Shown piece by piece: positions 4,771-28,507 of a stretch of 28,819 bases of DNA. Source of the stretch: a virus (lineage: Duplodnaviria; Caudoviricetes); IMG/VR virus record IMGVR_UViG_3300002091_000091, positions 1 through 28,819 of that record. One strand, 5' to 3'. The first letter of the stretch is position 1. Every line of letters begins with the position of its first letter. The notes under the pieces are model-generated. The model ran no database searches and was not told the DNA's origin. It worked only from the letters and a program-made list of their open reading frames with translations. Both the position numbers and the translations under genes were made by a program.

Positions 4771-4772
4771 GA

Positions 4773-7552: not shown

Positions 7553-7581
7553 TTTATACTACTTTTTAAAGCTGTGTGCAA
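7553..7581 (-). promoter_or_regulatory. sigma70-type promoter
   Basis: TTGCAC-17 bp-TATAAA on the minus strand. Confidence 0.55.
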
Positions 7582-7592
7582 GTATTTAAAGG

Positions 7593-7618
7593 AAAAACCC
7601 CGCCTTTTGAGCGGGGTC
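7593..7618 (-). terminator. rho-independent terminator after the major capsid gene
   Basis: minus strand ACCCCGCT-CAAA-AGGCGGGGT hairpin region followed by a T run. Confidence 0.7.
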
Positions 7619-7650
7619 CAAACTTCTTTACGTTTGCGTAAAACTACGGA

Positions 7651-8553: not shown

Positions 8554-8567
8554 TTATAGCTCCTTAA

Positions 8568-9398: not shown

Positions 9399-9412
9399 TT
9401 AGAACTCCTAAG

Positions 9413-10818: not shown

Positions 10819-10828
10819 TTGGGGCTCC

Positions 10829-11248: not shown

Positions 11249-11429
11249 CTGAGTGCTCCAATTGTTGTTTGAGGTCTTCAATGATTGCACATGCAGCTTC
11301 TAGACCTCGAATCTGTCCACATGTGTACCTATATTCCTCAAAGTCTGTACAGGCGCCTCTGGATAATGCTGTTTGTAGCATCGCCATCCGCTCCTTTAGT
11401 TCTTTGAGGTAATACTCGTTTTGATCCAT
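11241..11429 (-). CDS. conserved small phage protein
   Basis: 62 aa with EEYRY.CGQIRGL; coupled to the portal stop. Confidence 0.7.
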   Translation of the reverse strand: MDQNEYYLKELKERMAMLQTALSRGACTDFEEYRYTCGQIRGLEAACAIIEDLKQQLEHSDD

Positions 11430-13975: not shown

Positions 13976-13977
13976 AA

Positions 13978-14241
13978 TTATTTCCTAAGTGTCGCTCTGT
14001 TTGTTTTTGGGTCGTACTTATACTCGGATGGAGTTCGCCCAGATTCTTTAGTTGCTCTATCTAATGCACGTTCCCTAGCAGTCATATTGTCACGTTTCTG
14101 ACCTGCTTTCGTTAATGTTTTTCCGTCTGCTTCTAACTGACCCCGCTTTTGTAAGATACCAATAGCTGTTTCTTTGCTACCCACTTGAGCTGCAAGTCTT
14201 TCAACCAATTGATGGCGCCCCATATACTTTTGCGTTGTCAT
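13978..14241 (-). CDS. small basic hypothetical protein
   Basis: 87 aa ORF coupled to the TerL stop, filling the gap to the portal gene. Confidence 0.6.
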   Translation of the reverse strand: MTTQKYMGRHQLVERLAAQVGSKETAIGILQKRGQLEADGKTLTKAGQKRDNMTARERALDRATKESGRTPSEYKYDPKTNRATLRK

Positions 14242-15788
14242 ACGTTGTAGTACCCCATATTTCGCTTTGACCTAAACTGCAGTGGCTCATCTTCCTCATC
14301 GGAATCTAAGCGAACAAAGCCCCCACGACGAAAACGTAACAATGCCTGGGTCATCGAATCTACTAAGTCATCGTGCTCCCCAGATGGAAAACTTGCTACA
14401 TCTTCTACTAACTCTTCTGCCCAATGTGTTGCAGGCACCCAAACTCTTCCCGAAGCGAACATATCTGCCACGGCATTTAATCTAGCTATTTTATCATTGC
14501 CTTTGCTAGGAGTGTACTCTTGAACGGGGATACCCATTGCTCGCAACTCAAAAACAAGGGGTGCCCCAGAAGCTTTAGCTTCCACAATGAGAGCATCAGG
14601 TTCCCATTCTTTATAGTGTTCTAGCGCTGTTTGCTTTAACTCTGGGAACTCCATACGCTGTTTAAAGGAGTTAAGAAGGATAATACAGGCTATTGGAACA
14701 ACGTTTTGCCCACGTTTTTCGTCGTTATAAAACACACCCCAAGTAGTGCAAGCACTATAGTCTGAACGTTGTGTCTTTAAGAAAGCTGTGTCCCAGCTCT
14801 GTATGATAAATTCGCAAGGCGGTGGGGTATCGCTTTCCCATATCTTCCACCATTCTCGTTTGACAATAGCAGACACATCTGAGGTAGGGGACTGCATATA
14901 CTGCGCCATCCACTTACCATTTGGCAGTTCATTACGTAAGGCTAAGAGCTCTTCTAATTTCCAAAACTCAGGCCATAGAGGTTTTTCGTCCGGTAAAATA
15001 GCAGGGAACTCAATTACTTCCCATTGTTCGCCACTGCGTGCAGATGCAGCTTTAACTACTTGCCCAGTTAGATCTTTCTTAGACCATCGGGTCATAACTA
15101 TAATAATTGCACCACCTGGCTGTAGGCGCTGACGAGGTCCAGAGGTATACCACTCGTAAGTCTTATCGTAAACCTCAGGGTTTGACTCTGCTAGGGTTGC
15201 TTCTTGTTCTGAATGTGGGTCATCAATAATGAGGATATCCGCGCCCTTACCCGTAACTGCTCCTCCCACACCAATAGCAAAATAGTCTCCACCTTGGTTA
15301 GTCGCCCACCGGCCAGCAGCCTTAGAATCAGATTGGAGCCCCACGCCCGGGAATATGGACTTATATACATCTGAATCAACCAAGTTACGCACTTTTCTAC
15401 CAAACCCGACCGCCAGCTCTGCTGTATGTGCTGTCTCGATAATCTTCTTTTTTGGAAACTTACCAAGAAACCAAGCGGGTAATAGATAAGAAGCGAACTC
15501 AGATTTAGTGTGGCGAGGCGGCATATTGATAATAAGCCGTTTAACTTCTCCATTTGCTACCCTTTCAAATGCTCGTGCCATCTCTTGATGATGTTCACCG
15601 TCAATAAACCCAGGCCATACCTTATGAGCAAAATCCATAAAGTTTTCCTGGCAATTTTCTACTTCTTTAGACTCCACAGTCTCAGATAGATCAGCATAAA
15701 GAGCCCTTAGTTGGCCCTCGTTTAGCTTTGTCAGGTTACTTTCTAGAGCTTTTAGCTCTGCGTTACTCAGTTTCTTGAGCGCTGTCAT
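14238..15788 (-). CDS. terL: terminase large subunit
   Basis: Walker A MPPRHTKS, Walker B IIDDPH, C-motif MTRW, nuclease SWDTA and HDDLVDS. Confidence 0.93.
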   Translation of the reverse strand: MTALKKLSNAELKALESNLTKLNEGQLRALYADLSETVESKEVENCQENFMDFAHKVWPGFIDGEHHQEMARAFERVANGEVKRLIINMPPRHTKSEFASYLLPAWFLGKFPKKKIIETAHTAELAVGFGRKVRNLVDSDVYKSIFPGVGLQSDSKAAGRWATNQGGDYFAIGVGGAVTGKGADILIIDDPHSEQEATLAESNPEVYDKTYEWYTSGPRQRLQPGGAIIIVMTRWSKKDLTGQVVKAASARSGEQWEVIEFPAILPDEKPLWPEFWKLEELLALRNELPNGKWMAQYMQSPTSDVSAIVKREWWKIWESDTPPPCEFIIQSWDTAFLKTQRSDYSACTTWGVFYNDEKRGQNVVPIACIILLNSFKQRMEFPELKQTALEHYKEWEPDALIVEAKASGAPLVFELRAMGIPVQEYTPSKGNDKIARLNAVADMFASGRVWVPATHWAEELVEDVASFPSGEHDDLVDSMTQALLRFRRGGFVRLDSDEEDEPLQFRSKRNMGYYNV

Positions 15789-16356
15789 CGTCTAAATCTT
15801 TAGTAAGGCGTTCTGAGGTGGGGGTTATATCAATTGTGTTCATTTGCATGAGCAAACGTATCTTTTCCCTGATTCCTTCTTGCAATTCAAGGGAATTTTT
15901 GTGTGTAATAGTAATTTCTTGGTGTTCTGTGAACAAATCTGAGGCTTTTCCAAGTAATTCGACCGCTTTAATAGCTATTTTTAAGTCGTCTTCTTTACTC
16001 ATCTCAAGCAGTCTATTAACTGCAATGTTGCGAAGCTGTACTTTATCCGCAATAACCTGTTTGTCGTAGTGAGATATATACCCTGCTAACGCATAAGCAA
16101 CGCCCGGGGTTGACGCAACAGCAACTTCTTTTTTCTGAACTGGTTTAGAAGGGTCTTCGCCGTCTATTTGAGCAAAAAGTCTACGAGCTTCTTCTTGTTC
16201 TTCTTCTGTAACTTCCATAGTAGCGCCAAGCTCTTTTAATATGAGGGCTGTGTTCGCTTTAATGCGTAAGTTATCTGAATGTGACTGTGCCACAGCATCA
16301 CGGGTGTGACTTTCTGGGTGTGGAACGTCTTTGGTCGGTTCTACATTTACCGGCAT
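15763..16356 (-). CDS. putative terminase small subunit
   Basis: 197 aa helical protein directly upstream of and overlapping terL; AIKAVELLGK..DLFTE motif. Confidence 0.55.
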   Translation of the reverse strand: MPVNVEPTKDVPHPESHTRDAVAQSHSDNLRIKANTALILKELGATMEVTEEEQEEARRLFAQIDGEDPSKPVQKKEVAVASTPGVAYALAGYISHYDKQVIADKVQLRNIAVNRLLEMSKEDDLKIAIKAVELLGKASDLFTEHQEITITHKNSLELQEGIREKIRLLMQMNTIDITPTSERLTKDLDDDSAQETE

Positions 16357-16373
16357 GTTTGGTTGCAGGTTGG

Positions 16374-16733
16374 TTATGATGGGCTAAGTGTACCAGCTTT
16401 TTCGTCGTAATGATGTTTTCTGTGGCAATTTGCGCATAATACTATGCACTTTTTAATTTCTTTATACGCTTTAGTAAACATCCTATTACTGATTAGCTGA
16501 CTAACCTCGTACTCTTTTTCGGTAGGATCTATATGGTGGAAGTCTAATGTAGCTGTATGGTTTTCTGGACAGCGAGCGCAATGTAGGGCTGACTTATATA
16601 AGTCCCATTTTTCTTTGCCTCGTTTAGAGGACTGCGCTGTGGTAGCTAATACCTTATCTTTATTTGCTAGATAGTACTTACGGCTGTACTCCTTGTGCTT
16701 GCTTTTTCTTACGCTCTCGTCTTTGTATGGCAT
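16374..16733 (-). CDS. HNH endonuclease
   Basis: CARC, LDFHH and LCANCHRKHH motifs; adjacent to the terminase genes. Confidence 0.8.
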   Translation of the reverse strand: MPYKDESVRKSKHKEYSRKYYLANKDKVLATTAQSSKRGKEKWDLYKSALHCARCPENHTATLDFHHIDPTEKEYEVSQLISNRMFTKAYKEIKKCIVLCANCHRKHHYDEKAGTLSPS

Positions 16734-17166
16734 CTGGATCTAGTTTCCTTTTCCAATAAACGGCCTTGGACATCCCCCAAGGATTTGCTGGAGTATACAT
16801 CTTGAAACCTGCATTGATTAAAGAATTTGCACTAGCGGGATTATTTGTTGTATCCGTGATACACCATGCCCAACCTAACTTCTTAGCTTGCACGAGGCGA
16901 ACTTTAATCATACGTAGTTGTAGGCCATGACCTGTAAAGCCATCCATTACACCTGCTCTACATAAGTAACCGGTATCTGTCCATTTGATCGAGCGTGCCA
17001 GACCCGCAAAACCTACGGGCTTCCCACATTCTGCATAAGCTATCCACCAATGTCCGCGGTCCGGTGTGTATGGTTGGTCTGCTGGCAAAATCTTTTTCTG
17101 AAGAAACACTAACAGATTCCGAATTGCTGGGTTTCTTATATCTACTTTTCTTACCGTGAACTTCAT
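16678..17166 (-). CDS. GNAT-family acetyltransferase
   Basis: PVGFAG, motif-A-like FTGHGLQLRMI and NPASANSL...GF. Confidence 0.75.
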   Translation of the reverse strand: MKFTVRKVDIRNPAIRNLLVFLQKKILPADQPYTPDRGHWWIAYAECGKPVGFAGLARSIKWTDTGYLCRAGVMDGFTGHGLQLRMIKVRLVQAKKLGWAWCITDTTNNPASANSLINAGFKMYTPANPWGMSKAVYWKRKLDPDAIQRRERKKKQAQGVQP

Positions 17167-17193
17167 ACATTGGGTCCCCTTCCGTGAATCTAA

Positions 17194-17222
17194 ATTATAC
17201 CGGGGGGTATGTGGGAGGTAAA
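17194..17222 (-). promoter_or_regulatory. putative sigma70 promoter for the packaging operon
   Basis: TTTACC-17 bp-TATAAT on the minus strand upstream of the GNAT gene. Confidence 0.45.
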
Positions 17223-17270
17223 CGACCTATAGGGGGGTATTTCTAGAGAATAGGATTGTCTATGTTGCCT

Positions 17271-17300
17271 AAAAACAACGTATGGGGGCCGTAGCCCCCT
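17271..17300 (-). terminator. putative terminator hairpin
   Basis: GGGGGC-TACG-GCCCCC hairpin followed at a short distance by GTTGTTTTT. Confidence 0.45.
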
Positions 17301-17311
17301 AATTTTATTAC

Positions 17312-17440
17312 TTATTTTATTTTAAAGAACTCTTTCCAGCTAGAAGTAATGCAGCCAGCCCAGAATTCATATGCTTGCTTGGTTTGGTCAGATAGAGCTT
17401 CAAAGCGCTTAAATACTTTTTCAAAATCAGTTTCGAACAT
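17312..17440 (-). CDS. 42-aa amphipathic helical protein (phasin-like candidate)
   Basis: not in the ORF track; MFETDFEKVFKRFEALSDQTKQAYEFWAGCITSSWKEFFKIK with AGGAG RBS, own promoter and downstream hairpin. Confidence 0.6.
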   Translation of the reverse strand: MFETDFEKVFKRFEALSDQTKQAYEFWAGCITSSWKEFFKIK

Positions 17441-17492
17441 TATGTTCTCCTATAAGTAGTGTTGGGCCCTACTTTTGTAGGGGGTTTTGTGT

Positions 17493-17521
17493 AGTATACG
17501 ATACATTTTGTTGCAATGCAA
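17493..17521 (-). promoter_or_regulatory. sigma70 promoter with TTGCAATGCAA palindrome over the -35
   Basis: TTGCAT-17 bp-TATACT on the minus strand; palindrome at 17511-17521. Confidence 0.55.
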
Positions 17522-17867
17522 TATTTGATATATGACAGTTCCGTATGCATATTGTTTTGATATGTATACTTTTTGCGGTTTTTTATACACGTTTTATTAA
17601 AGTTTCATGCACTTTATGGCACATGTTTGCATGGCTTTTTCTTTTGTAATCATAAGGTTACAGTAATGTTCCATTTAGGTAGTCTTAAAATTTTTTATAT
17701 AGGGGGGTGGGGGTGTGCACTATAAAGAGGCATGGGGGATGTTTCTAGAATTTTATTTTTAATATATCTACTGTGCAAAACACTGTGTATGTATTGCAGT
17801 GGGTCCCATTGTTGGTATATCGGGGCATGGGGGTATAGTGGGGTAGGCTGGCTGGCATAGCGAATCA

Positions 17868-17897
17868 GGACAATCTGAGTTAAAGCTAAATTAGTCT
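17868..17897. repeat. degenerate copy of the 12-6-12 palindromic site
   Basis: GGACAATCTGAG-TTAAAG-CTAAATTAGTCT; several mismatches but the same spacing. Confidence 0.4.
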
Positions 17898-17917
17898 GAA
17901 AATAATCTCGAAAAGGC

Positions 17918-17946
17918 TTGACAATGTAAGTATTATTTGCGATACT
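17918..17946 (+). promoter_or_regulatory. sigma70 early promoter 1
   Basis: TTGACA-17 bp-GATACT with TG upstream of the -10. Confidence 0.7.
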
Positions 17947-17987
17947 CAAAGCGTACCAATTCGGTACTTACTTATAAAGGATATACC

Positions 17988-18596
17988 ATGTCATACATTA
18001 CTACTGAATTAACTAAAGCTGGTTTCATCTCTATCGGATCAGCCTGTGCTGATATTGATGGTCAACGTGATGAGGCTTTACTATCATTTTACAATGCTGT
18101 GCTGGTTGATGGTGATATTGATTATAGCGCATGGGTTGATGGTGCTACATTTTGGAAGCAAGGCTATGCTGAGGCTAAGCATTGCCAGCCTGACGATAAC
18201 AAGGTCTCAGTAGCATGGCATAGCTTTACTAGCGATCTCAAGACTCAATACGATATCGTTAAGCCAGCTAAGCCCACAAAGGCTGGCGCTGATAAGGCTA
18301 AGCAAAGGACTAAACAAGCTGAGGAGATGGAAGCAATCAAGGCTAAGCCAATTGAAGCGCTGGTTGAAGAGGTTGCAATGCTTACCCAAAACCCTACACT
18401 TGCTAACATTCAGAAGGCTACCAAAATACAGAAGGCTGTGGAAGCTAAGCGAAAAGAGGCTATTAAGGATCGCATGGCTGGCATTACTGAGTTACAAAAA
18501 GATGTCAAAGCATTAGTAGGACAATGCTTAGATGAGGAGAAACTAGGCTATATCAAGATGATGTTAGAAGGTGAGGTTGATATCTCCATAATGTAA
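17988..18596 (+). CDS. hypothetical early protein (paralog A)
   Basis: start MSYIT at 17988 after AAAGGA; shares NPTLxNIxxAxK with 19339-19938. Confidence 0.75.
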   Translation: MSYITTELTKAGFISIGSACADIDGQRDEALLSFYNAVLVDGDIDYSAWVDGATFWKQGYAEAKHCQPDDNKVSVAWHSFTSDLKTQYDIVKPAKPTKAGADKAKQRTKQAEEMEAIKAKPIEALVEEVAMLTQNPTLANIQKATKIQKAVEAKRKEAIKDRMAGITELQKDVKALVGQCLDEEKLGYIKMMLEGEVDISIM

Positions 18597-18601
18597 TAAT
18601 G

Positions 18602-18655
18602 GCTGGGGGAAACCCCAGCTTGTTTTATCTAACCCGCTTAGGCGGGTTTTATTTT
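18602..18655 (+). terminator. GAAA-loop hairpin plus rho-independent terminator
   Basis: GCTGGGG-GAAA-CCCCAGC then AACCCGC-TTAG-GCGGGTT-TTATTTT. Confidence 0.8.
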
Positions 18656-18659
18656 GCCT

Positions 18660-19200
18660 ATATATAAGGGAACTGGTTGTAAGCGACGCATTAGCCCTGT
18701 TCGCAAAGCGAACGCAGTCGGCATCAAACGCAAGGCGAACGGAACATTACAAGGGTGAACCAAACTAACGCAATAATCGAGTAGGACAAAGTTAGATCGA
18801 GCTAAGAATGTCCGTTACGTTGGTAATGTTCGAGAAATTCGCTTTGTTCCAAAACGCTAAAATAAGTGGAACAAAAGAAACTGAGTTAAATCAATGAGTT
18901 ACACGCTTTGTTCTAATGTTCCTAATGTTCCATTTTTTTACTTCGCTCAGAATTTTTAATTTTCTCGTTCGCTTCGCCCCTCTCGCATAGTGCAGAGAAT
19001 AGATTTTTTAACCTCGTAATATAAAAGTTATAACAATATAACATTAGAACATTATATATAAAACAGACAGCAAACCCTTGTAGTTATAAGGTTTTGTAAT
19101 GTTCCAACGAAGCGAACAAAATAGAACAAAGCACCTCTTTTTAGAACAAAGCGAATTACACTTCTCGCAGATTCTTTAGAACCACGACGGACACTAGGAC
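18660..19200. repeat. non-coding region rich in GAACA/TGTTC direct and inverted repeats
   Basis: 14-bp IR 18836-18849/19144-19157, 12-bp IR 18909-18920/19040-19051, at least six AATGTTC/GAACATT units, AT-rich core. Confidence 0.6.
18784..18813 (+). repeat. 12-6-12 palindromic site copy 1
   Basis: GGACAAAGTTAG-ATCGAG-CTAAGAATGTCC (one mismatch). Confidence 0.85.
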
Positions 19201-19206
19201 AACCCC

Positions 19207-19235
19207 TTGACATTGTAATGGTATTCTGTTATACT
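19207..19235 (+). promoter_or_regulatory. sigma70 early promoter 2
   Basis: TTGACA-17 bp-TATACT with extended -10 TG. Confidence 0.8.
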
Positions 19236-19276
19236 ACAAGGGTAGTAAAGATTAAAAGGCAGTAAGTAACAAAAGC

Positions 19277-19306
19277 GGACAAACTTAGGTAGTGCTAAGA
19301 ATGTCC
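19277..19306 (+). repeat. 12-6-12 palindromic site copy 2
   Basis: GGACAAACTTAG-GTAGTG-CTAAGAATGTCC. Confidence 0.95.
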
Positions 19307-19338
19307 ATAAACCAAACTTAAAAGGATTTAAAAACACT

Positions 19339-19938
19339 ATGAAAACTGTTATCAAAACCCAAGAAATGATTTACGCTTTTGATGAGCAACAAACTGCTTC
19401 AATTAAAGCAAGCGCAATTAACTTCTTTGAATCTGAAGAATCCGCAGAAAACGCAGTATTAACTTATCAGCGCATCATTGGTCTAAAACCGACTTTCGAT
19501 CAGTACGAAATGGGTCGTTTGCTATTCCTCGAAGCGATCACCGAAGTAAAACCCGATATTACCGACAATGCCTTAAACGTGCGCTGGAATACGTTTAGCA
19601 AAAAACTCGGGATCGATAAGCCTAAAAAGACGGACTCTGCCGATGCTGTTCGCAAAGCGAACGAGAGAGCCTTGGCAAAAGAAAAGCAACAGGAAGAATT
19701 TAAGGGCATGACTATCGAGGAATTAAAACACGAAGCCAAGAACTTGCTAAGCAATCCCACACTCAAGAACATTGAGCAAGCGAAGAAATACACAAAGCAA
19801 GCCGAGTTACTTTACAAGGAAGCGAACAAGGAAGAACAAGAACAAAAGGCGCAGTTAGTTAAAGACTTAACTGCATGGGCAAAAGACCAAAGTTATCTTG
19901 ACCTCTACACTATTTGCGAGAACATGGGAGTTATCTAA
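19339..19938 (+). CDS. hypothetical early protein (paralog B)
   Basis: 199 aa, helical K/E-rich; NPTLKNIEQAKK matches paralog A. Confidence 0.75.
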   Translation: MKTVIKTQEMIYAFDEQQTASIKASAINFFESEESAENAVLTYQRIIGLKPTFDQYEMGRLLFLEAITEVKPDITDNALNVRWNTFSKKLGIDKPKKTDSADAVRKANERALAKEKQQEEFKGMTIEELKHEAKNLLSNPTLKNIEQAKKYTKQAELLYKEANKEEQEQKAQLVKDLTAWAKDQSYLDLYTICENMGVI

Positions 19939-19942
19939 ACCA

Positions 19943-19990
19943 TAGGGGGAAACCCCTAGTAACTCTAAGCCCACTTCGGTGGGCTTTTTT
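19943..19990 (+). terminator. GAAA-loop hairpin plus rho-independent terminator
   Basis: TAGGGG-GAAA-CCCCTA then AAGCCCAC-TTCG-GTGGGCTT-TTTT. Confidence 0.85.
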
Positions 19991-20078
19991 ATTACCTAAA
20001 ATAAATGTGAGAACTGGTCAGCCAAAGCCAAGCGACGCAAAAGCGCAATCAAATCAAGCCCTTACGAAGGACAACCCC

Positions 20079-20107
20079 TTGACATTGTCATGATTCTATG
20101 GTATACT
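20079..20107 (+). promoter_or_regulatory. sigma70 early promoter 3
   Basis: TTGACA-17 bp-TATACT; shares GGACAACCCCTTGACATTGT with promoter 2. Confidence 0.8.
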
Positions 20108-20145
20108 AGAGGGGTTAGTGGGAATTTAATTTATTTGTTTTTGCT

Positions 20146-20175
20146 GGACATTCTTAGGTGTTACTAAGTTTGTCC
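20146..20175 (-). repeat. 12-6-12 palindromic site copy 3 (inverted)
   Basis: GGACATTCTTAG-GTGTTA-CTAAGTTTGTCC is the reverse complement of the consensus. Confidence 0.95.
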
Positions 20176-20196
20176 TAATTTATGAAAGGTAGTGCA

Positions 20197-20457
20197 ATGT
20201 CCAACCGACAAGCGACACACGAGTCACACCGCTATTTCTGCGTAGCTAATATTGCCAAAGACTGCGATACCTATGTAGATAGCAAGCGTGCTGATATTCT
20301 AGCAACACAACACCGACTACTAACTTGCTTGAAATGTGGCGATGTAATAGCTAAGGGTAAAAAGCATATTGTGCAGATTCCCTATTCCAAAGGTGCGTAT
20401 CAATACATACATAACCCGCAAGACTTATTCTTCACTAACCCAAAGAGGACAACATGA
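20197..20457 (+). CDS. small putative zinc-binding protein
   Basis: Cys pairs C-x7-C and CLKC; C-terminal SKGAYQYI; start 20197 after GAAAGGT (20182 also possible). Confidence 0.6.
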   Translation: MSNRQATHESHRYFCVANIAKDCDTYVDSKRADILATQHRLLTCLKCGDVIAKGKKHIVQIPYSKGAYQYIHNPQDLFFTNPKRTT

Positions 20458-20603
20458 CCTACATATTTGGAGCATTGGCAATCGTGGTATCTATCATGAC
20501 AGTATGTGCGTCTTTCTTATTCGAGGTTACTGGAGTATTGCCTATCCTTGGCTTAGCTTTATCTGCGTTTACTTTCGGCTTCATTATGGGGGAGAACTCA
20601 TGA
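20454..20603 (+). CDS. 49-aa membrane protein
   Basis: not in the ORF track; GAGGA RBS, ATGA overlaps at both ends, two hydrophobic segments. Confidence 0.6.
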   Translation: MTYIFGALAIVVSIMTVCASFLFEVTGVLPILGLALSAFTFGFIMGENS

Positions 20604-20830
20604 GTGTGATGACCGAAGCGAACAAAGAATGGCGTAAGTTCATTGACATACTAGAGCAACACGACAAAGAAACATACCTTAACTTGTGGATGAAAGTGCC
20701 GTCGGCAACTGACAAAGTTATAAGTAATGACTACCAGCGTTGGCGACACATAGTGCAAAAAGCGTTTTTCGATGGGTATGAAGCTGGCTTTACCGATAGA
20801 TTATTTAAGGGGGATATAAACGATGATTAA
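20600..20830 (+). CDS. hypothetical protein
   Basis: start MSVMTE at 20600 after GGGGAG. Confidence 0.65.
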   Translation: MSVMTEANKEWRKFIDILEQHDKETYLNLWMKVPSATDKVISNDYQRWRHIVQKAFFDGYEAGFTDRLFKGDINDD

Positions 20831-20924
20831 GTTTATGGGTGTTATGTTATTAGGGGCAATCGGTGTATTCCTAGCCGTATTTGCTATTGGCTTGGGTGTG
20901 TATGTTGGAGGGCTAGTATTTTGA
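20823..20924 (+). CDS. 33-aa membrane peptide
   Basis: not in the ORF track; MIKFMGVMLLGAIGVFLAVFAIGLGVYVGGLVF; GGGGGA RBS. Confidence 0.5.
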   Translation: MIKFMGVMLLGAIGVFLAVFAIGLGVYVGGLVF

Positions 20925-21097
20925 GAGTTGTAAAGCTATACCGCAAACCCGATAAGCCCGAGTTCTTCATTTTGGTGCGACGCATAGCGAACGAGATTCT
21001 TTTGGTTTACCCCATTGAATTGCCTGAGCGAAAGCGGCAAGCAAGGTGGCTTAGTTTGGACGAAGTTTATATTGATTGGATAAGGGAGTTTGTATGA
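20921..21097 (+). CDS. 58-aa hypothetical protein
   Basis: TTG start after GGAGG; coupled overlaps at both ends. Confidence 0.5.
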   Translation: MRVVKLYRKPDKPEFFILVRRIANEILLVYPIELPERKRQARWLSLDEVYIDWIREFV

Positions 21098-21288
21098 CTG
21101 AGTATTACAAAGGGCAACGCATTACTGAATTGTTAGAAGCCATAACAACGATGGAGACCCGATTAAAAGCCCTAACCGCCGACGCCGACCCCTTTTCTTT
21201 AGCACAGTATGAAGAAGTAGCACAGGGCTATACCTCGCTTGCCCTAGCAAAAGCGAAACTAACTGCATTACAAGGAGAGAGTAAATGA
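21094..21288 (+). CDS. hypothetical coiled-coil protein
   Basis: start MTEYY at 21094 after AGGGAG. Confidence 0.6.
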   Translation: MTEYYKGQRITELLEAITTMETRLKALTADADPFSLAQYEEVAQGYTSLALAKAKLTALQGESK

Positions 21289-21503
21289 GCATGATGGCGG
21301 ATTTACACCAAGAACTATCGGAGTTTATTACCGATGAGCGTGACCAAGCAACCCTGTTGGAAATCTTTTGGGGTATGAACGACAAGCATGGCGATTCCGA
21401 CAGTCGCAAAAAAATGGCTCAGCAGATTGTTGATTTGCAGACTATCTATGGGGACTTGTTGGAAGATGCTGTTGAGGTTCTCTACAAGTATAAGAATCTA
21501 TGA
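21285..21503 (+). CDS. hypothetical protein
   Basis: 72 aa, AAGGAG RBS, ATGA coupling at its 3' end. Confidence 0.65.
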   Translation: MSMMADLHQELSEFITDERDQATLLEIFWGMNDKHGDSDSRKKMAQQIVDLQTIYGDLLEDAVEVLYKYKNL

Positions 21504-21661
21504 CTCTTGATGAATTAAAAGTATTAAGCGAAGTAAGTAACAACCTAAGCCTCATTAACATAGAAAGGACACCAGCGACATTAGTAAGACTACTAGCATT
21601 ACAAGCAAGAGATGCAATCGAGAAGTTAATAAAAGATCGGGACAAACTTAGCAACCACTAA
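21500..21661 (+). CDS. 53-aa hypothetical protein
   Basis: ATGA coupled; its last codons and TAA stop lie inside palindromic site copy 4. Confidence 0.55.
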   Translation: MTLDELKVLSEVSNNLSLINIERTPATLVRLLALQARDAIEKLIKDRDKLSNH

Positions 21662-21669
21662 GAATGTCC
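21640..21669 (+). repeat. 12-6-12 palindromic site copy 4
   Basis: GGACAAACTTAG-CAACCA-CTAAGAATGTCC. Confidence 0.95.
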
Positions 21670-21689
21670 AAACAACAAAAGGAGAAGTT

Positions 21690-21968
21690 ATGTATTGGAA
21701 TAATAGAACAGTAAGAACAGTTGCTCGTTATGAGCACAAAGGACAGGCAGTAATTGAGCCGTTCTTTGAGATCTGCGAAGTATTCTACAACGACAAAGGT
21801 CAGCCATGCGGTTATACCTCGGCAAATGTTGGCGGGGAAACACCTGAGGAATTGCTTGCAGTATACGAGAGAATGGCAGAGGCTTTAGAGCACCCAGTCT
21901 TAGATAGCGAGACGGACTTTAACAATAAGTTTGAAGAAGATGAGGAGGACGGACATGAGTTCGCTTGA
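21690..21968 (+). CDS. hypothetical phage protein
   Basis: 92 aa; W.NR and I.EVFY...G motifs; AAGGAG RBS. Confidence 0.7.
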   Translation: MYWNNRTVRTVARYEHKGQAVIEPFFEICEVFYNDKGQPCGYTSANVGGETPEELLAVYERMAEALEHPVLDSETDFNNKFEEDEEDGHEFA

Positions 21969-22170
21969 GAAAAACTTACGCCCATTACCACGCACGATGG
22001 ACGAGGCACAACGCAACGCTAACTATGCTAGTTCGATATATATGTTTAAGAGCGACGCACAAAACTCATGGGAATTTATAGTTGGTGCGGTATATGGGTT
22101 TGTCGTAGTTGGGTTAGCCGTTGGCTCTATTGCTTTATTACTTTACTGGTTGATTGGAGATAAATTATGA
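21955..22170 (+). CDS. hypothetical protein with C-terminal TM helix
   Basis: start MSSLEK after GGAGGA; PRTMDEA motif; hydrophobic C-terminus. Confidence 0.65.
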   Translation: MSSLEKNLRPLPRTMDEAQRNANYASSIYMFKSDAQNSWEFIVGAVYGFVVVGLAVGSIALLLYWLIGDKL

Positions 22171-23120
22171 GTTGGGGATTTGGGAATTGTGGTAGGTTAA
22201 AACCTATATCTACCTATAAGCAAGCAAAGGAACACTTTGAATGGGTGACTCCTATTCGTGGTCGCAAGGAAGAAGTTAAGCCTTTGGGGTTAAACCGACG
22301 CTATACATGGTATCGCATTAAAGAAAATATGCGGGTGGTTGACGACGGCTGTCTAGGTGCGTGGCAGAAGACTTACTCTGCTAATCTTTACAACACCGAC
22401 ATGGTTGAGTGGTTTCCTAATGGCGATATTGCAATAGGAACTGGTGGGTGGCAGTCCCCGACTAGTCTTGCGTTTATCAATTACACGACTCAAGACTTTG
22501 GGCATATTGAATCATGGAATGGCAAATGGTATTTTACTAATAGAGAGAACAAAAGCTATCTACTAAAGAGTAAGACTAAAGAAAAGCTATTGTTGGTTAA
22601 TACCGGACGGCAGATCCAATCCTATGCTAGAGGAATGGTTGATGTATATGAGCCAGCTCATCCACAACAGGAACACAAGTACTCAGCGAACAGAAAGGAG
22701 ATGAATCGTCTTAAGAAATACTACGCACCATTTACCGAGTATTGCAAGAATATGCTACTCATCGACAATAAGTTTAACTACACATCAGAAGAAATGGATA
22801 AAGCGTTTGGCAAGATGACGAGTCCTCACATGGTTTCTTATAGCTACCACAGAGATATTGCTAAAGAGCATAGGAGTTTCTTTATGGAAAAAGTCGGAGA
22901 GTTTATTGATGGCGGGTCCATAAATTTAAACCTAGCCTATAACTTAGCATTGCTTGGTGCTAAGTCGGCAGCGGGTTGGAGACAACGATGCGAACCTAGA
23001 CAGTTCGAGGATAACTTCATTGAGATAATTAGAAACCACCATAACGCAGAAGTATTTAAAGCCACCCCTATGGAAGTAGGTGTTGCCTTTGTTGACCGCA
23101 ACGCAAAGTATTTTTATTAA
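22167..23120 (+). CDS. hypothetical protein
   Basis: 317 aa open frame with GGAG RBS; PIRG...PLG..R motif. Confidence 0.75.
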   Translation: MSWGFGNCGRLKPISTYKQAKEHFEWVTPIRGRKEEVKPLGLNRRYTWYRIKENMRVVDDGCLGAWQKTYSANLYNTDMVEWFPNGDIAIGTGGWQSPTSLAFINYTTQDFGHIESWNGKWYFTNRENKSYLLKSKTKEKLLLVNTGRQIQSYARGMVDVYEPAHPQQEHKYSANRKEMNRLKKYYAPFTEYCKNMLLIDNKFNYTSEEMDKAFGKMTSPHMVSYSYHRDIAKEHRSFFMEKVGEFIDGGSINLNLAYNLALLGAKSAAGWRQRCEPRQFEDNFIEIIRNHHNAEVFKATPMEVGVAFVDRNAKYFY

Positions 23121-23135
23121 GGTAGTTAACTCAAC

Positions 23136-23165
23136 GGACAAACTTAGTAAGACCTAAGAATGTCC
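23136..23165 (+). repeat. 12-6-12 palindromic site copy 5
   Basis: GGACAAACTTAG-TAAGAC-CTAAGAATGTCC. Confidence 0.95.
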
Positions 23166-23187
23166 ACAATAACGGAAGGAAGTAACC

Positions 23188-24282
23188 ATGTCTGAAGTAT
23201 TTTTAAATAAAGTAGCAACTCTTGCAGAAGCAGAGAATCTTATCCTCTCTCTTGGTGCTAACGGAACAGTTCATTTAGTAGGTGAGCCGGGCGTAGGCAA
23301 AACTTCAATGTTTAAGAATATCGTGCGTCGCACAGGCTTTAAAGGTATTTACATTGATGCACCTAACATTGAACTAGGCGAATTAGGTATTCCAATCCCT
23401 GACCATGCCACAAAAACAACCCGAATCTACCCGAATGAGCAATGGGGTTTTCATGTAAATGAGCCAAAGGTTATCTTTATTGACGAGTTCACTAAAGCCC
23501 ACAATGCAGTTAAGAATATGCTTCATCCTATGCTTAATGAACCTCGTATGATTATGGGCATCCCATTGCACGAGAAGGATATTGTCGTAACGGCAGGGAA
23601 TTACTCAGGCGATGGGGTAGGCGATAACATGATGGCTCATAGCCGGAACCGCGTGACTGTTGTGCAAGTAAAAAAACCTCACGCGGGATTTAATCCTGAT
23701 GGCTCGATAGACCATGATTCTTGGGGTGCTTGGGCAGTAGATAATGCGATAGCACCTGAGGTTTTAGCATGGGTTAAAGAAACACCTCATTGCTTGTCTT
23801 CATATCTCGACGGAGCACAAGCGGGGAATAAATATATCTTTAATCCTAAAGAGGCACAGAAGTCTTTTGTTTCCCCTCGTTCTCTTGCTAGAGCATCAGC
23901 TATTCTTACGGCTCGTACAGGTGTAACACTAAACGCAACTATTTGTGCATTAGAGGGGACGATTGGTGCGCCTGCGGCTAGAGATTTGATGGCATATGTG
24001 GAGGTCGCCGACTCGCTACCAACTTGGGATGAAATTTGCAAGTCACCCAATACTGCAATAGTGCCGTCATCACCCGCCGCTTTGTGTCTGCTAGCTTTCT
24101 CTGCGGTGCAAAAGGTTGATCGGGAATCTATCAGTAAGTTCTTTGAATACTTAAAGCGAACTCCAAAAGAATTGCAATCGGTATTCTGTCTTACTGGTAT
24201 GAAGAACGACGACAAGAAGAAGTTGTTTTTGACTAGCCAATCATTCACGACATGGATGCGTGAGAATCAGTACTTATTCTAA
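23188..24282 (+). CDS. AAA+ ATPase (MoxR/dynein-related type)
   Basis: Walker A GEPGVGKT, Walker B IFIDE, sensor-1 TAGN, arginine finger RNR, sensor-2 SPRS. Confidence 0.88.
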   Translation: MSEVFLNKVATLAEAENLILSLGANGTVHLVGEPGVGKTSMFKNIVRRTGFKGIYIDAPNIELGELGIPIPDHATKTTRIYPNEQWGFHVNEPKVIFIDEFTKAHNAVKNMLHPMLNEPRMIMGIPLHEKDIVVTAGNYSGDGVGDNMMAHSRNRVTVVQVKKPHAGFNPDGSIDHDSWGAWAVDNAIAPEVLAWVKETPHCLSSYLDGAQAGNKYIFNPKEAQKSFVSPRSLARASAILTARTGVTLNATICALEGTIGAPAARDLMAYVEVADSLPTWDEICKSPNTAIVPSSPAALCLLAFSAVQKVDRESISKFFEYLKRTPKELQSVFCLTGMKNDDKKKLFLTSQSFTTWMRENQYLF

Positions 24283-24291
24283 GGAAAATAT

Positions 24292-24501
24292 ATGTTAAAA
24301 GAAATTGTTGATGTGATGCGTGAGCATAGTAGGGTCAAAGCCGAGGGTAAACGCTTAGTTGTTGAGATGATCAAGTTGGCAGTAGAAACTGGGTTGACTC
24401 AAGAGGAGGCACTCAAGGCACACCTACCTACTTATTTAGATGGTTACTTAATGGCATTAGGACATATGCCGGAATACAGAAAGGATGCCTTAAATGATTG
24501 A
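24292..24501 (+). CDS. hypothetical protein
   Basis: 69 aa, AAGGA RBS. Confidence 0.6.
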   Translation: MLKEIVDVMREHSRVKAEGKRLVVEMIKLAVETGLTQEEALKAHLPTYLDGYLMALGHMPEYRKDALND

Positions 24502-24691
24502 GATTACCTACGCAGATATGTTCCTATTCGTTGTTATCCTGTTCTTATTAGCTATCTGGGTAAAGACAAAAGTGGAAATGAAAATGCAGAGAAAAGCCAT
24601 GATGCGAGGGTTGTATGCTTTGCATGAAGGTAAAGCCGAAGTAATCGTCGATGAAGTAGAAGGATCAATTCGTTTACAGGAGAAAGTATGA
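24494..24691 (+). CDS. small protein with N-terminal TM helix
   Basis: MFLFVVILFLLAIWV segment; AAGGA RBS. Confidence 0.6.
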   Translation: MIEITYADMFLFVVILFLLAIWVKTKVEMKMQRKAMMRGLYALHEGKAEVIVDEVEGSIRLQEKV

Positions 24692-25905
24692 GTAAGTTAA
24701 CAGCAGAACAACGCATTGAACGCACCCATGTGCAACTAATGAAACACCCTAACTTTTGTTTGTTTTCGGGGTTATTCATGGTTGGCAAGGTGAAGGTTGA
24801 TGAGGAGTGTCCTAGTGCTAAGACTAATGGGGTTGATGTTACCTATGGTCGTGGGTTCGTGGATAGCTTAACTGATAAGGCTCTTGCCTTTTTGATATTG
24901 CATGAGAATATGCACAAGGCTTATCGGCATTTGGTTGTGTGGAAACACTTGCACAAGAAAAACCACCAGCTAGCAAATGCGGCTTGTGACTTTGTTATCA
25001 ACTTGCAAATCCGTGACTACGACCCTGATGGTAGGGATACCGAGATGCCTGTTGATGCCGACGGCAATGTAATGGGACTTATCGATGAGAAGTATCGAGG
25101 TATGGATACGGCTCAAATCTTCCGTCTGCTAGAAGATGAGTATGGTGGTAAGGGCAAAGGCGCTGGTGGCGGTAAAAGGGGTAACGAGGCTGGTCAAGAT
25201 TTAGACGACCATGACTGGGAAGGTGCGGAAGAAGCAACACCTGAGGAACAAGAAGCCGTAGCGAACGAAATCGAGCGAGCATTACGACAAGGTTCAATCC
25301 TAGCGGGTAAGATGGGCGGTAAGGTTTCTAGAGAACTACAAGACTTACTTACTCCGAAGGTTGACTGGCGTGAGGCACTAAGGGACTTTGTTAAGACTTC
25401 AACTCAAGGTAAAGACCAAACAACTTGGCGTCGGTTGCATAAGCGTTACATCGGGTGCGACATCGTCATGCCTTCTTCTTATGATGAGAAGGTTGGGTCT
25501 ATTCTTATTGGTATAGATACCTCAGGCTCTATCGGTGGGGAAGAACTGGCGGGGTTTTTGAGCGAGGTCAAATCTATTTGTGATGAGGTCTCTCCCGAAA
25601 AAATTGATTTACTTTATTGGGATACGCATGTGGCATCTCACGAAGTTTATCAAGGCTCTGAACTTTGCAACTTAACTGAAACAACTAAGCCAGCGGGGGG
25701 TGGTGGTACTAGCCCTGAGTGTGTGCCTCGTTACATGAAGAAAGAAGCCTTAGAGCCTGAGTGCGTAATTATGCTAACCGATGGGTATATCGGGTCGCAA
25801 GACCCAAGCGACTGGCAAATCAACAAGCCTATTCTTTGGTGTATCAAAGGCAATGAAAGATTTAATAGTTCTCAAGTATCAGGAAAGGTGGTTCATGTGG
25901 AATGA
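24688..25905 (+). CDS. metallopeptidase-like (HExxH) plus VWA domain protein (DUF2201-type)
   Basis: LHENMH, N.ACD..IN, MIDAS DTSGS, GGGGT and TDG motifs. Confidence 0.85.
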   Translation: MSKLTAEQRIERTHVQLMKHPNFCLFSGLFMVGKVKVDEECPSAKTNGVDVTYGRGFVDSLTDKALAFLILHENMHKAYRHLVVWKHLHKKNHQLANAACDFVINLQIRDYDPDGRDTEMPVDADGNVMGLIDEKYRGMDTAQIFRLLEDEYGGKGKGAGGGKRGNEAGQDLDDHDWEGAEEATPEEQEAVANEIERALRQGSILAGKMGGKVSRELQDLLTPKVDWREALRDFVKTSTQGKDQTTWRRLHKRYIGCDIVMPSSYDEKVGSILIGIDTSGSIGGEELAGFLSEVKSICDEVSPEKIDLLYWDTHVASHEVYQGSELCNLTETTKPAGGGGTSPECVPRYMKKEALEPECVIMLTDGYIGSQDPSDWQINKPILWCIKGNERFNSSQVSGKVVHVE

Positions 25906-26188
25906 TAAGAAACCTTGGTGGCAGAAACCTAAAGGCGACCCAAGAAAGGCTGTCGATAGTAAGTATGCCAAGAATTGGTGCGTGGTTGCGATGGTCAGAA
26001 TGGAGCATACACCGAATAGGTTTAGTCCTGTGGTAGTAAGTTTTTATAGGGCATGTACCATGCTTAACGCACCAAAGTATTTTACAGAAGATGGCAAGGT
26101 AGAAAGTAGCGCAGTAATGAGTAACCTAACCAAGCAAGATGCGCTTGCGTGCGCTAAAGGCTTAAACTTTTTTGATGGACAAACTTAG
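25895..26188 (+). CDS. hypothetical protein
   Basis: start MWNDK at 25895 after AAGGTGG; TAG stop lies inside palindromic site copy 6. Confidence 0.6.
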   Translation: MWNDKKPWWQKPKGDPRKAVDSKYAKNWCVVAMVRMEHTPNRFSPVVVSFYRACTMLNAPKYFTEDGKVESSAVMSNLTKQDALACAKGLNFFDGQT

Positions 26189-26206
26189 CAACAACTAAGA
26201 ATGTCC
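26177..26206 (+). repeat. 12-6-12 palindromic site copy 6
   Basis: GGACAAACTTAG-CAACAA-CTAAGAATGTCC. Confidence 0.95.
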
Positions 26207-26224
26207 TTAACGATAGGAATGATT

Positions 26225-27127
26225 ATGAACCAAGAAAATAGTATTTCCATTGCATCTTCTGCAATGTTAGTTGAACTTAGCATTAGTGGTTGGAGTGCTA
26301 GAAAGCTAGACAAGCGTGCGTCGGCTCAGGTAGATATTACTAACTCTACCAAAACTAAAGCTGGCAACTATAACAAGAACCTTCTTGCCGGTACTGGGTT
26401 TCTCGACACCATAACAAAGTATGCTGCACAGGCTAGAGCATGGCATTTAAGTCAGACGCTTCCTTGGTCGGATAATGGTTTACGCTTATTGCCTATGGGC
26501 AGGTTTCTAGAGTACAAGGAGCAGTTACATACTCTGGAGACAAACTACATGGCGCTAGTGGATAAGTTCGTAGTAGCCTACCCCAACCTAGTAAGTGCCG
26601 CCGCATTTCAGTTAGGTGATTTGTTTGACCGAAGCGAATATCCCGAGGTCGAGAAGATTCCAGCGAAGTTTAAATTCTCAGTGAACTATTTGCCTGTACC
26701 TATGGCTGGTGATTTCCGAGTAGACATTAACGAAGAAGCTAAGGCTGAACTTGTTAAGTCATGTGAAGATGCTTACAACGAGCGACTAGGTAACGCTATG
26801 AAAGATGCTTGGAGTAGATTGCATGGATGCTTGACTCGCATAAGTGACCGCTTAGATAGCGATATTGTAGATAAGGAAGTTGATGGTGAGTTTATCCAAG
26901 TAGTGCAACGCAAACGAATCCACGACACAGTAATAGAGAATGCTGTTGAATTAGTAGAACTCTTAAAACATTTTAACCTTACAGGCGACGCTAACATGGA
27001 GATGGCACGTAAAGAATTAGAGAGGGCAATCGGTGGGCGCAGTGCCGACGACCTTAAAGACAGCGAAGCTACTCGCAACCTAGTCAAGAGCCAAGTAGAT
27101 GCAATCCTTGGCAAGTTTAACTTTTAA
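26225..27127 (+). CDS. conserved helical phage protein associated with AAA+/VWA modules (DUF3150-like, tentative)
   Basis: SSAMLVELSISGW, TLPWSDNGLRLLP and LGDLFDRSEYP motifs; likely start MNQEN. Confidence 0.6.
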   Translation: MNQENSISIASSAMLVELSISGWSARKLDKRASAQVDITNSTKTKAGNYNKNLLAGTGFLDTITKYAAQARAWHLSQTLPWSDNGLRLLPMGRFLEYKEQLHTLETNYMALVDKFVVAYPNLVSAAAFQLGDLFDRSEYPEVEKIPAKFKFSVNYLPVPMAGDFRVDINEEAKAELVKSCEDAYNERLGNAMKDAWSRLHGCLTRISDRLDSDIVDKEVDGEFIQVVQRKRIHDTVIENAVELVELLKHFNLTGDANMEMARKELERAIGGRSADDLKDSEATRNLVKSQVDAILGKFNF

Positions 27128-27136
27128 GGAGGTAGT

Positions 27137-27334
27137 ATGCGAGTATATAAACCACGCAACAGGAACAAACTAATTGAGGAAGCGAATCGCAACTCCTTAA
27201 CTGCACTGCTAAAGCAAGACCTACCACTAGAGGAGAAGTATGCATTAGTAGAAGAACGCAATCCGTTTATCCATGCGTTCGGAAGAAAACTTAAAGTTGT
27301 TATTAAAGGAGAAGAAGATGATTGTGGTAAATAG
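27137..27334 (+). CDS. hypothetical protein
   Basis: 65 aa, perfect AAGGAGGT RBS. Confidence 0.65.
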   Translation: MRVYKPRNRNKLIEEANRNSLTALLKQDLPLEEKYALVEERNPFIHAFGRKLKVVIKGEEDDCGK

Positions 27335-28187
27335 AGATGGTTTAAAAGCCGAGTATCGTAACACTATAGGATATATGGAAAAGCTGGAGGACTTTTTACA
27401 AGATGTTGCCTTAGCCAAACCATTGCTAAGTTTTAGTGTTGACGATCACTGCGTCACTAATGAACGCAAGAAAGATGCGAACGGAGATATAAAAAATGAA
27501 AAGATGCTGTATCGCATTAAGGTTTATGGTGCTGGTGAAGAACTAGGTAGTATCGGTATTGTCGATAGATGGAGAGGCGGAATTACCGAAAAAGCCTATA
27601 TGGTAGAGTGTTTCCGTATCAATAAGCATAGAGGTAGGGGGAATACGACCACGTCTATTGATGTTAAGTTAGCCTTGCGAGAAGCTAAGAAAGCATTTAA
27701 CCCTAGAGAAGATTCGGAATTAAAACACCTTATTAGGGATCGTGTTACTCAACAAGTAAGTAATGCTTTTAATTCTTATCGTAATAATTTGCGTTGGGAC
27801 TTAAACCAAGAAGATGAACTATGTAACTATGCCCTAACAGCTTATGAGGCTAGAAAATCAGGAGAGGCATATGCCGAGTTACCTTCAGCTATTGCTAGCG
27901 TTAAGGACTTTAAAGCACATGATAAAAAATGCGAGAAGTTTATTCATTATAGAGAACTATCTGATGCCCTATTTAGTAAGCAAGGGTTTGGTATTAGAGC
28001 TAACTTAGACAACTCTATTATTGTGTATAGCTACATGAATGATAGTATTACTAGGTTTAATTCTTTTACCGATTTGCCCGACAGCATCCAATCTAAGTAC
28101 GCAGTCTTTAAAGTACTAGATGAACTTGATGCTGTAGATGGGATTGGAGTTAAATTTTCTGATGGGTATGCATATATTATGCCTTGA
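27318..28187 (+). CDS. hypothetical protein
   Basis: start MIVVN at 27318 after AAGGAG; 289 aa open frame. Confidence 0.75.
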   Translation: MIVVNRDGLKAEYRNTIGYMEKLEDFLQDVALAKPLLSFSVDDHCVTNERKKDANGDIKNEKMLYRIKVYGAGEELGSIGIVDRWRGGITEKAYMVECFRINKHRGRGNTTTSIDVKLALREAKKAFNPREDSELKHLIRDRVTQQVSNAFNSYRNNLRWDLNQEDELCNYALTAYEARKSGEAYAELPSAIASVKDFKAHDKKCEKFIHYRELSDALFSKQGFGIRANLDNSIIVYSYMNDSITRFNSFTDLPDSIQSKYAVFKVLDELDAVDGIGVKFSDGYAYIMP

Positions 28188-28353
28188 TGTATAATATGGT
28201 CAGGTTGACTTCATAGTTAATCCTTTCGTGAGGTGGGCTGAAATGTATAGCAGATGCAAATCAACTCGTTTTACCTTATTAGCATACTAGGATGTAATCT
28301 GCTTTACCTAGGAATGTGTTGATGCATATTCATACTCCAAAAAAGGAAACACT

Positions 28354-28379
28354 AAGCCACCCTTCGGGGTGGCTTTTTT
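28354..28379 (+). terminator. rho-independent terminator
   Basis: AAGCCACCC-TTCG-GGGTGGCTT-TTTT. Confidence 0.85.
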
Positions 28380-28382
28380 ATT

Positions 28383-28412
28383 GGACAAACTTAGCAAGAC
28401 CTAAGAATGTCC
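28383..28412 (+). repeat. 12-6-12 palindromic site copy 7
   Basis: GGACAAACTTAG-CAAGAC-CTAAGAATGTCC. Confidence 0.95.
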
Positions 28413-28440: not shown

Positions 28441-28469
28441 TTGCTAAGTCGTTTTTGTTGTGGTATACT
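28441..28469 (+). promoter_or_regulatory. sigma70 promoter
   Basis: TTGCTA-17 bp-TATACT with extended -10 TG. Confidence 0.6.
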
Positions 28470-28507
28470 TTGTCAATAATAATAGTACCACCGAAAGCGA
28501 TAACCAA

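Follow-up and report, generated by a model that had tools for sequence, protein, structure and literature searches.

What reads a palindrome that is repeated along the early arm of a phage genome? The question is raised by a stretch of 28,819 nucleotides of viral DNA (IMG/VR record IMGVR_UViG_3300002091_000091, hereafter the window), which is part of a freshwater tailed phage of ~60-68 kb. Its plus-strand arm carries dispersed sites in which two 12-bp arms flank a 6-bp spacer, and an earlier note, made from the letters alone, had proposed either that they bound exchangeable recombination cassettes or that one phage protein occupies all of them as operators. We report that the array is real and clade-wide; what is new here is a candidate reader for it within the window. 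Comparison of the sequences indicates that the products of two paralogous early genes, termed genes 1 and 2, probably bind the sites. That they bind there and turn early transcription down is a closer call, which we make with slightly better than even confidence.

The palindromes form an array that differs between lineages

The 12-6-12 palindrome was matched seven times in the window and not once in 100 dinucleotide shuffles, at the positions and with the spacers listed before, and the copy previously read as inverted (20146) was matched on the minus strand. With a limit of 7 mismatches in the 24 arm bases, a single extra site was detected (17868-17897, 5 mismatches), and the scan was empty over positions 1-17,800, in agreement with the earlier view that the structural arm lacks copies. 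All eight sites are confined to the plus-strand arm, from 17.9 to 28.4 kb (Table 1), and the seven spacers of the pattern matches are mutually different. As had been read, two sites contain the stop codon of an open reading frame (ORF), because ORFs 21500-21661 and 25895-26188 end within sites 5 and 7. The copy at 17868 had been called degenerate. Its position was confirmed, but its TGAG half recurs at the same place in three related genomes (G001, G002 and G003), and by this comparison it is a conserved variant, not a decayed copy.

The exact motif of the window was found in 5 other virus contigs. Relatives have palindromes of their own (26-29 bp), which are lineage-specific and lie at matching positions. 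In the close set, which comprises 46 loci whose ATPase start is intact (73-96% identity; of 52 loci, 6 were dropped as truncated or remote), the best palindrome upstream of the ATPase gene was used as the seed, and 3-11 copies of the locus's own motif were found in 42 of the 46. Among the distant loci (55-64%) a seed-free search detected an array in 16 of 16. In the common layout an outer box (xAC) is followed by three A/T-rich bases, then by an inner box of 4 bp and by a spacer whose length is characteristic of the genome. A and T are interchangeable at arm bases 5-7, and spacer length ranges from 4 to 7 bp across lineages (of 33 loci, 5 bp in 21, 6 bp in 10 and 7 bp in 2). Counted by eye, there are about 15 site types.

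In six long contigs the copies were confined to the 11-kb early arm, with one weak match (5 mismatches) outside it. The positions that match across genomes are upstream of the first gene, flanking the non-coding gap, downstream of the early promoters, upstream of the ATPase gene and of the DUF3150-like gene, and past the last terminator; the slot of site 6 holds a palindrome in the close relatives examined. At matching positions the orientation of the arms flips between genomes, and 4 of 8 copies are inverted in G002 against 1 of 7 in the window. In a distant clade (L198-L213) both paralogs lie on the strand opposite to the ATPase gene, the early arm is divergent and the array is kept.

The fixed arm asymmetry described in the earlier note held within this lineage but not clade-wide. 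Perfect arms do exist, as in 4 of 9 sites of L067, and they are depleted overall (10 of 235 sites against 42 expected, the genomes not being independent); arm positions 5-6 are mismatched above random pairing (z -8.5 and -5.6). One guess at the cause of the depletion is selection against strong hairpins in transcribed DNA, and another is an asymmetric complex of both paralogs. Spacers of the window type are often C....C, or the complement G....G, irrespective of arm orientation, as if loop and arms flipped separately; our guess here would be hairpin micro-inversion.

A scan for further genomes of the TAGG type returned the known contig plus three single matches only. In the 30-40 kb covered of each of the cultured capsid relatives Pag-Yong1, HTVC023P and DSL-LC04, neither the array nor the family of genes 1 and 2 was found. 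Pag-Yong1 (L222, OL906435.1) has two similar-looking helical genes (17004-17843 and 23933-24496), one first in the early arm and one before the ATPase gene, which were not matched by the family profile. The literature searched held no description of the array or of the protein, although most subscription journals were outside its coverage and absence is unproven; in a report of HTVC023P-type pelagiphage genomes (PMC9599517) the string 'palindrom' occurs nowhere in the main text.

Two residues of a predicted helix change in step with the site

The family of genes 1 and 2 was present in 5 of 5 near-complete genomes and comprises at least 246 proteins with no meaningful names. Neither gene product had a match in Pfam, PHROG or PDB. 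For gene 2, tblastn against 50,697 phage records gave no match, and a PDB sequence search and an Atlas feature search gave chance-level matches only. The predicted layout of the gene 2 product is a four-helix N-terminal domain, a KP linker, a basic helix (residues 99-121) and a helical tail; residue numbers below follow this gene, which starts at 19339.

In a training set of 34 genes from 24 dereplicated loci, two rules relate the protein to the inner box. Under rule 1, an R at residue 85 goes with C as base 11, and with any other base the residue is E, D, S, T, A or K (33 of 34 genes); under rule 2, K or R stands at residue 81 if and only if bases 9-10 are GA (34 of 34). Among 56,914 column tests across 11 families from the early arm, these two came out best, and for base 11 the highest z in 1,295 columns was that of T85 (9.5; the next was 5.6). 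The TTAG box of the window pairs with V81/T85 in gene 2 and with V75/S79 in gene 1, where these residues occupy the co-varying positions of a helix marked by W77. Both positions fall in predicted helix 4, which would be the recognition helix of gene 2. In major-groove readout R is known to contact G, and D or E to contact C, and the helix-4 residue-base pairs fit this chemistry.

The two paralogs give a comparison within each genome. In a tree built without helix 4, genes 1 and 2 fall into separate clades (97/93 and 99/95), and despite this separation both change their helix-4 residues in parallel with the site. Agreement between paralogs within a site type is led by V81, N77, N80 and N84 (4 of the top 6 columns), and the residue and the base change along the same branches of the tree, with 4-5 and 5 changes when counted separately and 5 when counted jointly. 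The most telling case is that of L208/L209, L210 and L213, in which a lone TGAG site immediately precedes the start of the paralog that lacks R and the other sites are TGAC. In L203/L204 the same paralog carries R, and its site ends in GAC. Furthermore, L084, L089 and L098, which were fetched by DNA motif alone, encode the same helix as the window. Another 19 genes were fetched as hold-outs after both rules had been noted. Rule 1 held in 17 of the 19, all 10 genes with K or R at residue 81 have GA, and the advance prediction of an R..R helix with box xGAC was borne out in L214. Since the versions of the site change in step with two amino acids, the protein likely binds the sites; with the lineage-specific arrays and the co-varying helix 4, the operator half of the earlier proposal is supported.

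A number of results weigh against these readings. Rule 1 falls to 14 of 19 hold-outs when three paralogs are scored against the genome consensus and not their own upstream site, and most hold-outs have R with C, so that few are informative. Rule 2 held in only 11 of the 19, the 8 failures all having Q or A at residue 81 with a GA box; the advance prediction for gene 2 of L215/L216 failed; and the non-R paralogs of L198 and L206 have no clear matching site. The independent pairs are too few for the contrasts to be significant (rule 1, n = 5, 4.4 the same way and 0 opposite, p 0.06-0.25; rule 2, n = 4, never opposite, p 0.125-0.5). Because the genes lie among the sites, linkage helps any correlation, and the screen by column covered early-arm families, with 57 further gene clusters covered more coarsely by whole-protein identity. 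In the next helix, K106 and R110 follow bases 1 and 4 of the outer box (K goes with G in 23 of 25), but this link is weak, being confounded with the tree, and other columns do as well. The confident alignment-based model of the N-terminal domain (pLDDT 88.6) lends no structural support for DNA binding. Finally, few sites overlap promoter boxes and the sites are not helically phased to the promoter (leader sites, p 0.70; last site, p 0.42), so that the direction of regulation is not established.

Comparison of whole-protein identity with motif type, over early-arm and genome-wide families and with the early paralogs excluded (these were analysed by column), gave no family that separates cleanly; a ~2,070-aa LPD39 virion protein tracks motif type in 5 of 9 pairs. 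Single-sequence and alignment models of gene 2 gave no fold match, a result that says nothing on fold novelty. With the N-terminal domain model, Foldseek gave no match at E 0.001, and the best VIA-align result (Z 7.4, root mean square deviation 4.3, 86 aligned) is within the range of common helical arrangements. Helix 4 may resemble that of a Myb-like or integrase core-binding helical DNA-binding domain. No helix-turn-helix (HTH) family was among the 25 listed Pfam matches for 46 family members, and the fold searches list none, although an HTH may still be present. The earlier statement that no recombinase or HTH regulator is recognisable in the window stands for families known to Pfam and PHROG, but likely binders do lie there, in an unnamed family.

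How the sites could be bound and what binding could do

We propose that the palindromes are duplex DNA sites that would be bound by dimers, with one subunit per 11-12 bp arm. Helix 4 (residues 76-90) would sit in the major groove at the inner box (arm bases 8-11), the basic helix (K106, R110) would read the outer box (bases 1-4), and the KP linker would cross the A/T-rich bases 5-7. Genes 1 and 2 come first behind strong host-type promoters, so the protein is expected to accumulate early. It would then occupy the sites that follow promoters 2 and 3, those at gene junctions and the one upstream of the replication promoter, and the bound protein would act as an orientation-free block that damps its own genes and host-takeover genes. 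Turn-down is suggested by the placement of sites downstream of a promoter but ahead of the ribosome site, upstream of the gene for the protein itself, and elsewhere along the operon. Since helical phasing is lacking, an occupancy block suits the layout better than activation; activation by a phased upstream site was tried and is unsupported by the p values given above (0.70 and 0.42). Most sites lie 18-32 nt upstream of a start codon, and none of the eight is listed as a terminator or overlaps a strong promoter. Site 1 is possibly gene 1's own operator.

Table 1. Sites, promoters, terminators and candidate genes of the early arm (window coordinates)
Feature	Position	Strand	Remark
Site 1, variant with one TGAG half	17868..17897		21 nt upstream of the promoter 1 -35 box
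Site 2	18784..18813	+	Where the non-coding gap begins; 1 mismatch to the 12-6-12 pattern
Site 3	19277..19306	+	Between promoter 2 and gene 2, 32 nt before ATG
Site 4, inverted arms	20146..20175	-	Between promoter 3 and the next gene
Site 5	21640..21669	+	Gene junction; contains stop codon 21659-21661
Site 6	23136..23165	+	22 nt before the AAA ATPase gene
Site 7	26177..26206	+	Contains stop codon 26186-26188; precedes the DUF3150-like gene
Site 8	28383..28412	+	Past the terminator, 28 nt upstream of the replication-gene promoter -35 box
Promoter 1, sigma-70-like (10/12)	17918..17946	+	
Promoter 2 (11/12)	19197..19235	+	Outer box GGACA exactly 10 nt before TTGACA
Promoter 3 (11/12)	20069..20107	+	Same GGACA outer-box echo
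Promoter-like site before the VRR-NUC gene	28441..28469	+	Conserved in relatives
Two terminator-like hairpins	18601..18648	+	3' of gene 1
Terminator-like hairpin	19967..19986	+	3' of gene 2
Terminator-like hairpin	28354..28375		End of the early arm
Non-coding gap between sites 2 and 3	18650..19200		Rich in GAACA/TGTTC words resembling the outer box
Early gene 1 (202 aa)	17988..18596	+	Paralog of gene 2; candidate site-binding protein
Early gene 2 (199 aa)	19339..19938	+	Candidate site-binding protein
Gene 2 codons 76-90, predicted helix 4	19564..19608	+	N77, N80, V81, W83, N84, T85

As protein and site drift together, related phages would be expected to fall into specificity types, and a phage already in the cell could silence a newcomer of the same type. 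A wider proposal, which we put forward only tentatively and hold to be doubtful, is that the proteins are an undescribed DNA-binding family with a residue-base code and at least 15 specificity types in integrase-free freshwater phages, giving immunity between lytic siblings. The first phage would silence the early arm of a later phage of the same type, and rare types would escape. If binding holds, at least 246 proteins with no match in Pfam, PHROG or PDB would gain a testable function. There would be about 15 natural and orthogonal protein-site pairs with a small recognition code, seated in a helical domain unlike the listed DNA-binding folds, and it would have to be asked why integrase-free phages diversify repressor specificity in the manner of temperate immunity groups.

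Alternative explanations

The main rival to repression keeps the same protein-site pair and gives it another job: the protein would organise, protect or pull in the DNA that enters first, or would activate through an outer-box echo at the promoters. We regard this as rather improbable, but parts of the layout speak for it. The sites are spaced 0.5-3 kb across the arm that follows the terminase genes and the gap, and three are far from any promoter. The echo co-varies with lineage (GGACA, CACAA, AACAT, TACTT) and stands exactly 10 nt before TTGACA; the co-variation holds in 159 of 175 bases, against a null mean of 131 and maximum of 150 (the genomes are not independent). An activator 10 nt before a -35 box could touch RNA polymerase. 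The gap (18650-19200) holds 13 GAACA/TGTTC words, against 1.3 per 550 nt window-wide, and these could be low-affinity binding sites, an origin, or a packaging or entry signal. Against such a job, a site lies between promoter and ribosome site and a paralog-specific site stands before the paralog's own gene, which is the usual pattern of negative autoregulation, and the last site is not helically phased to its promoter. At 28441-28480, TTGC-N17-TATACT is followed by TGTCAATAA-like bases before the replication genes, an arrangement conserved in most relatives; the TGTCAATAA-like word downstream of this promoter resembles an inverted -35 box.

It is unlikely that another protein, from the phage or the host, uses the sites as its operators and that the helix-4 correlation reflects linkage or chance. 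The small number of independent contrasts and the lack of fold support for genes 1 and 2 leave some room for this explanation, and two other genes came into question. A ribbon-helix-helix (RHH)-like gene, so classified by sequence reading with no Pfam match, tracks the motif within one site type; but it occurs in 13 of 26 records (three false-join rows not counted), keeps one strand sequence across motifs, and was not found in this lineage's four incomplete records, all of which cover its usual place, so it was rejected as the reader. It occupies the slot between the DUF2201 and DUF3150-like genes (e.g., L061:12661-12891), where the window has the unrelated gene 25895-26188. A conserved HTH gene near the primase gene (27 of 49 records; 24 extracted) was rejected as a specificity factor, because its recognition helix is constant across motif types: all 24 aligned proteins, which span 9 motif types, keep the S/T-R/K-M-T/S helix. 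As for a host protein, the exact pattern occurred only twice, as single perfect palindromes, in 185,579 prokaryote genomes, and a search of genome contigs with the ATPase profile gave no prophage. Moreover, the paralog-specific sites match the residue of the paralog concerned.

The palindromes could also be RNA hairpins, with a processing or stabilising role, or extruded DNA hairpins. As the earlier note had it, both strands fold as 5 bp, a 2x2 mismatch, 5 bp and a 6-nt loop, with -9.9 to -13.5 kcal/mol as RNA. Stable folds shortly before start codons, the mismatch favoured at arm positions 5-6, the depletion of perfect arms, and G-U exceeding A-C on the sense strand (66 against 41, the genomes not being independent) would suit hairpins. 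However, sites 1 and 8 lie outside predicted transcripts and both orientations occur, flipping at matching positions; these two facts fit DNA and uphold the earlier argument that the inverted copy favours a DNA-level function. Furthermore, the sites of each genome have one primary sequence of their own, which is not that of other genomes and follows residues of the protein, the lone outer box co-varies at promoters, and Rfam gave no match at the gathering score. RNA hairpins are possible but fit less well than DNA sites, and we give this explanation a very small chance.

Least probable of all is that the sites are core sites of a tyrosine recombinase, from the phage or the host (XerCD), bounding exchangeable cassettes, as the other half of the earlier proposal had it. 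The 12-6-12 layout of this lineage would suit such sites. However, with positive controls, none of 21 records, of which 5 are at least 90% complete, had a match to PF00589, and none of 5 near-complete genomes had one to PF00239, so that neither integrase nor resolvase was detected in the latter; the spacers differ within the window and vary in length across lineages; and gene order is collinear, with genes gained or lost inside blocks and single sites appearing or vanishing. Block shuffling or inversion with breakpoints in the sites, which the note had suggested looking for, was not seen: every listed alignment block of 15 genome pairs was on the plus strand, and of 180 block ends, 141 were separated from a site by more than 40 nt. 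Another 22 of the 180 ended within 15 nt of one, but the sites are conserved islands, on which alignment ends fall anyway. No strand change was seen among 15 of 29 contig-joint rows from 4 runs, and one row linking 20125 to 28383 can be a repeat artefact. The lack of a recombinase, the collinear order and the differing spacers leave the cassette reading without support. A close strain has two replacements that touch a site: 20126-20196, including the inverted site, is replaced by 229 other letters (runs X6 and X7), and 25905-26169 by 259 other letters. Since, in addition, small genes flanked by two sites are gained or lost in some relatives, homologous exchange may occasionally be anchored at the repeats, which is possible as a by-product.

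Phage and gene context

The record is a 28.8-kb fragment, and near-complete relatives measure 60-67 kb. The minus-strand arm carries terminase, portal, GroES and capsid genes, and the plus-strand arm an AAA ATPase gene, a DUF2201 gene and a VRR-NUC nuclease gene among unnamed ones; one fully annotated near-complete relative has genes for DNA polymerase A, a primase and a helicase. The capsid protein shares 63-71% identity with its counterparts in Pag-Yong1/MinM2 and in the pelagiphages HTVC023P/027P. The runs that hold the window best are freshwater metagenomes, and no RNA run was among those listed for it. A 317-aa gene of no known family (22167-23120) occurs in each of the 26 long records, in every case immediately upstream of the site in front of the ATPase gene, and has no match in cultured phages. 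In G006, L105:11894-18118 encodes a 2,074-aa virion-region protein with LPD39 and DarB-like matches.

Comparison with known systems

The core sites dif, pdif and loxP consist of two 11-13 bp arms around a 6-8 bp spacer. The sites of this lineage share the layout with a 6-bp spacer, whereas here there is no recombinase, spacers are unmatched, most relatives have a 5-bp spacer, and no rearrangement was found. Lambda Cro and plasmid KorB are HTH repressors that turn transcription down from 13-17 bp operators, and KorB sites also act away from promoters. The candidate proteins gave no sequence match, but they are likewise proposed to be early proteins that, on palindromes, would damp their own and neighbouring operons.

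Two further phage systems are looser analogues. The extended start-associated sequences (ESAS) of Cluster K mycobacteriophages (PMC3203893) are likewise imperfect inverted repeats before start codons with a genome-specific consensus, and their function is given there as unknown. They have 17-bp arms, a variable spacer of 4-13 bp and a linked 13-bp start motif, whereas here the arms are 11-12 bp, the spacer is fixed per genome and a candidate protein is identified. The PeSL cassettes of T4-type phages (PMC2839356) are also repeats between variable early genes that are able to anchor exchange; they are promoter-plus-terminator units, whereas the sites described here are separate from both and breakpoints lie mostly elsewhere.

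In its proposed working, the array appears most like the repressor-stoperator system of Cluster A mycobacteriophages (PMC6550527, PMC9283540), although it departs from that system in the symmetry and orientation of its sites. As reported, that system too has many dispersed sites, a genome-specific motif that drifts with the phage protein, a proposed block of initiation and elongation, and two DNA-reading elements per chain. Stoperators lack symmetry, for the most part share one orientation and are the targets of a monomeric HTH protein, the immunity repressor of temperate phages; the candidate here has no HTH match, and no integrase was found. Unlike in Cluster A, the sites described here are palindromes of 26-29 bp that occur in either orientation and in the early arm only, and their candidate reader is the product of the first early gene, often present as two paralogs.

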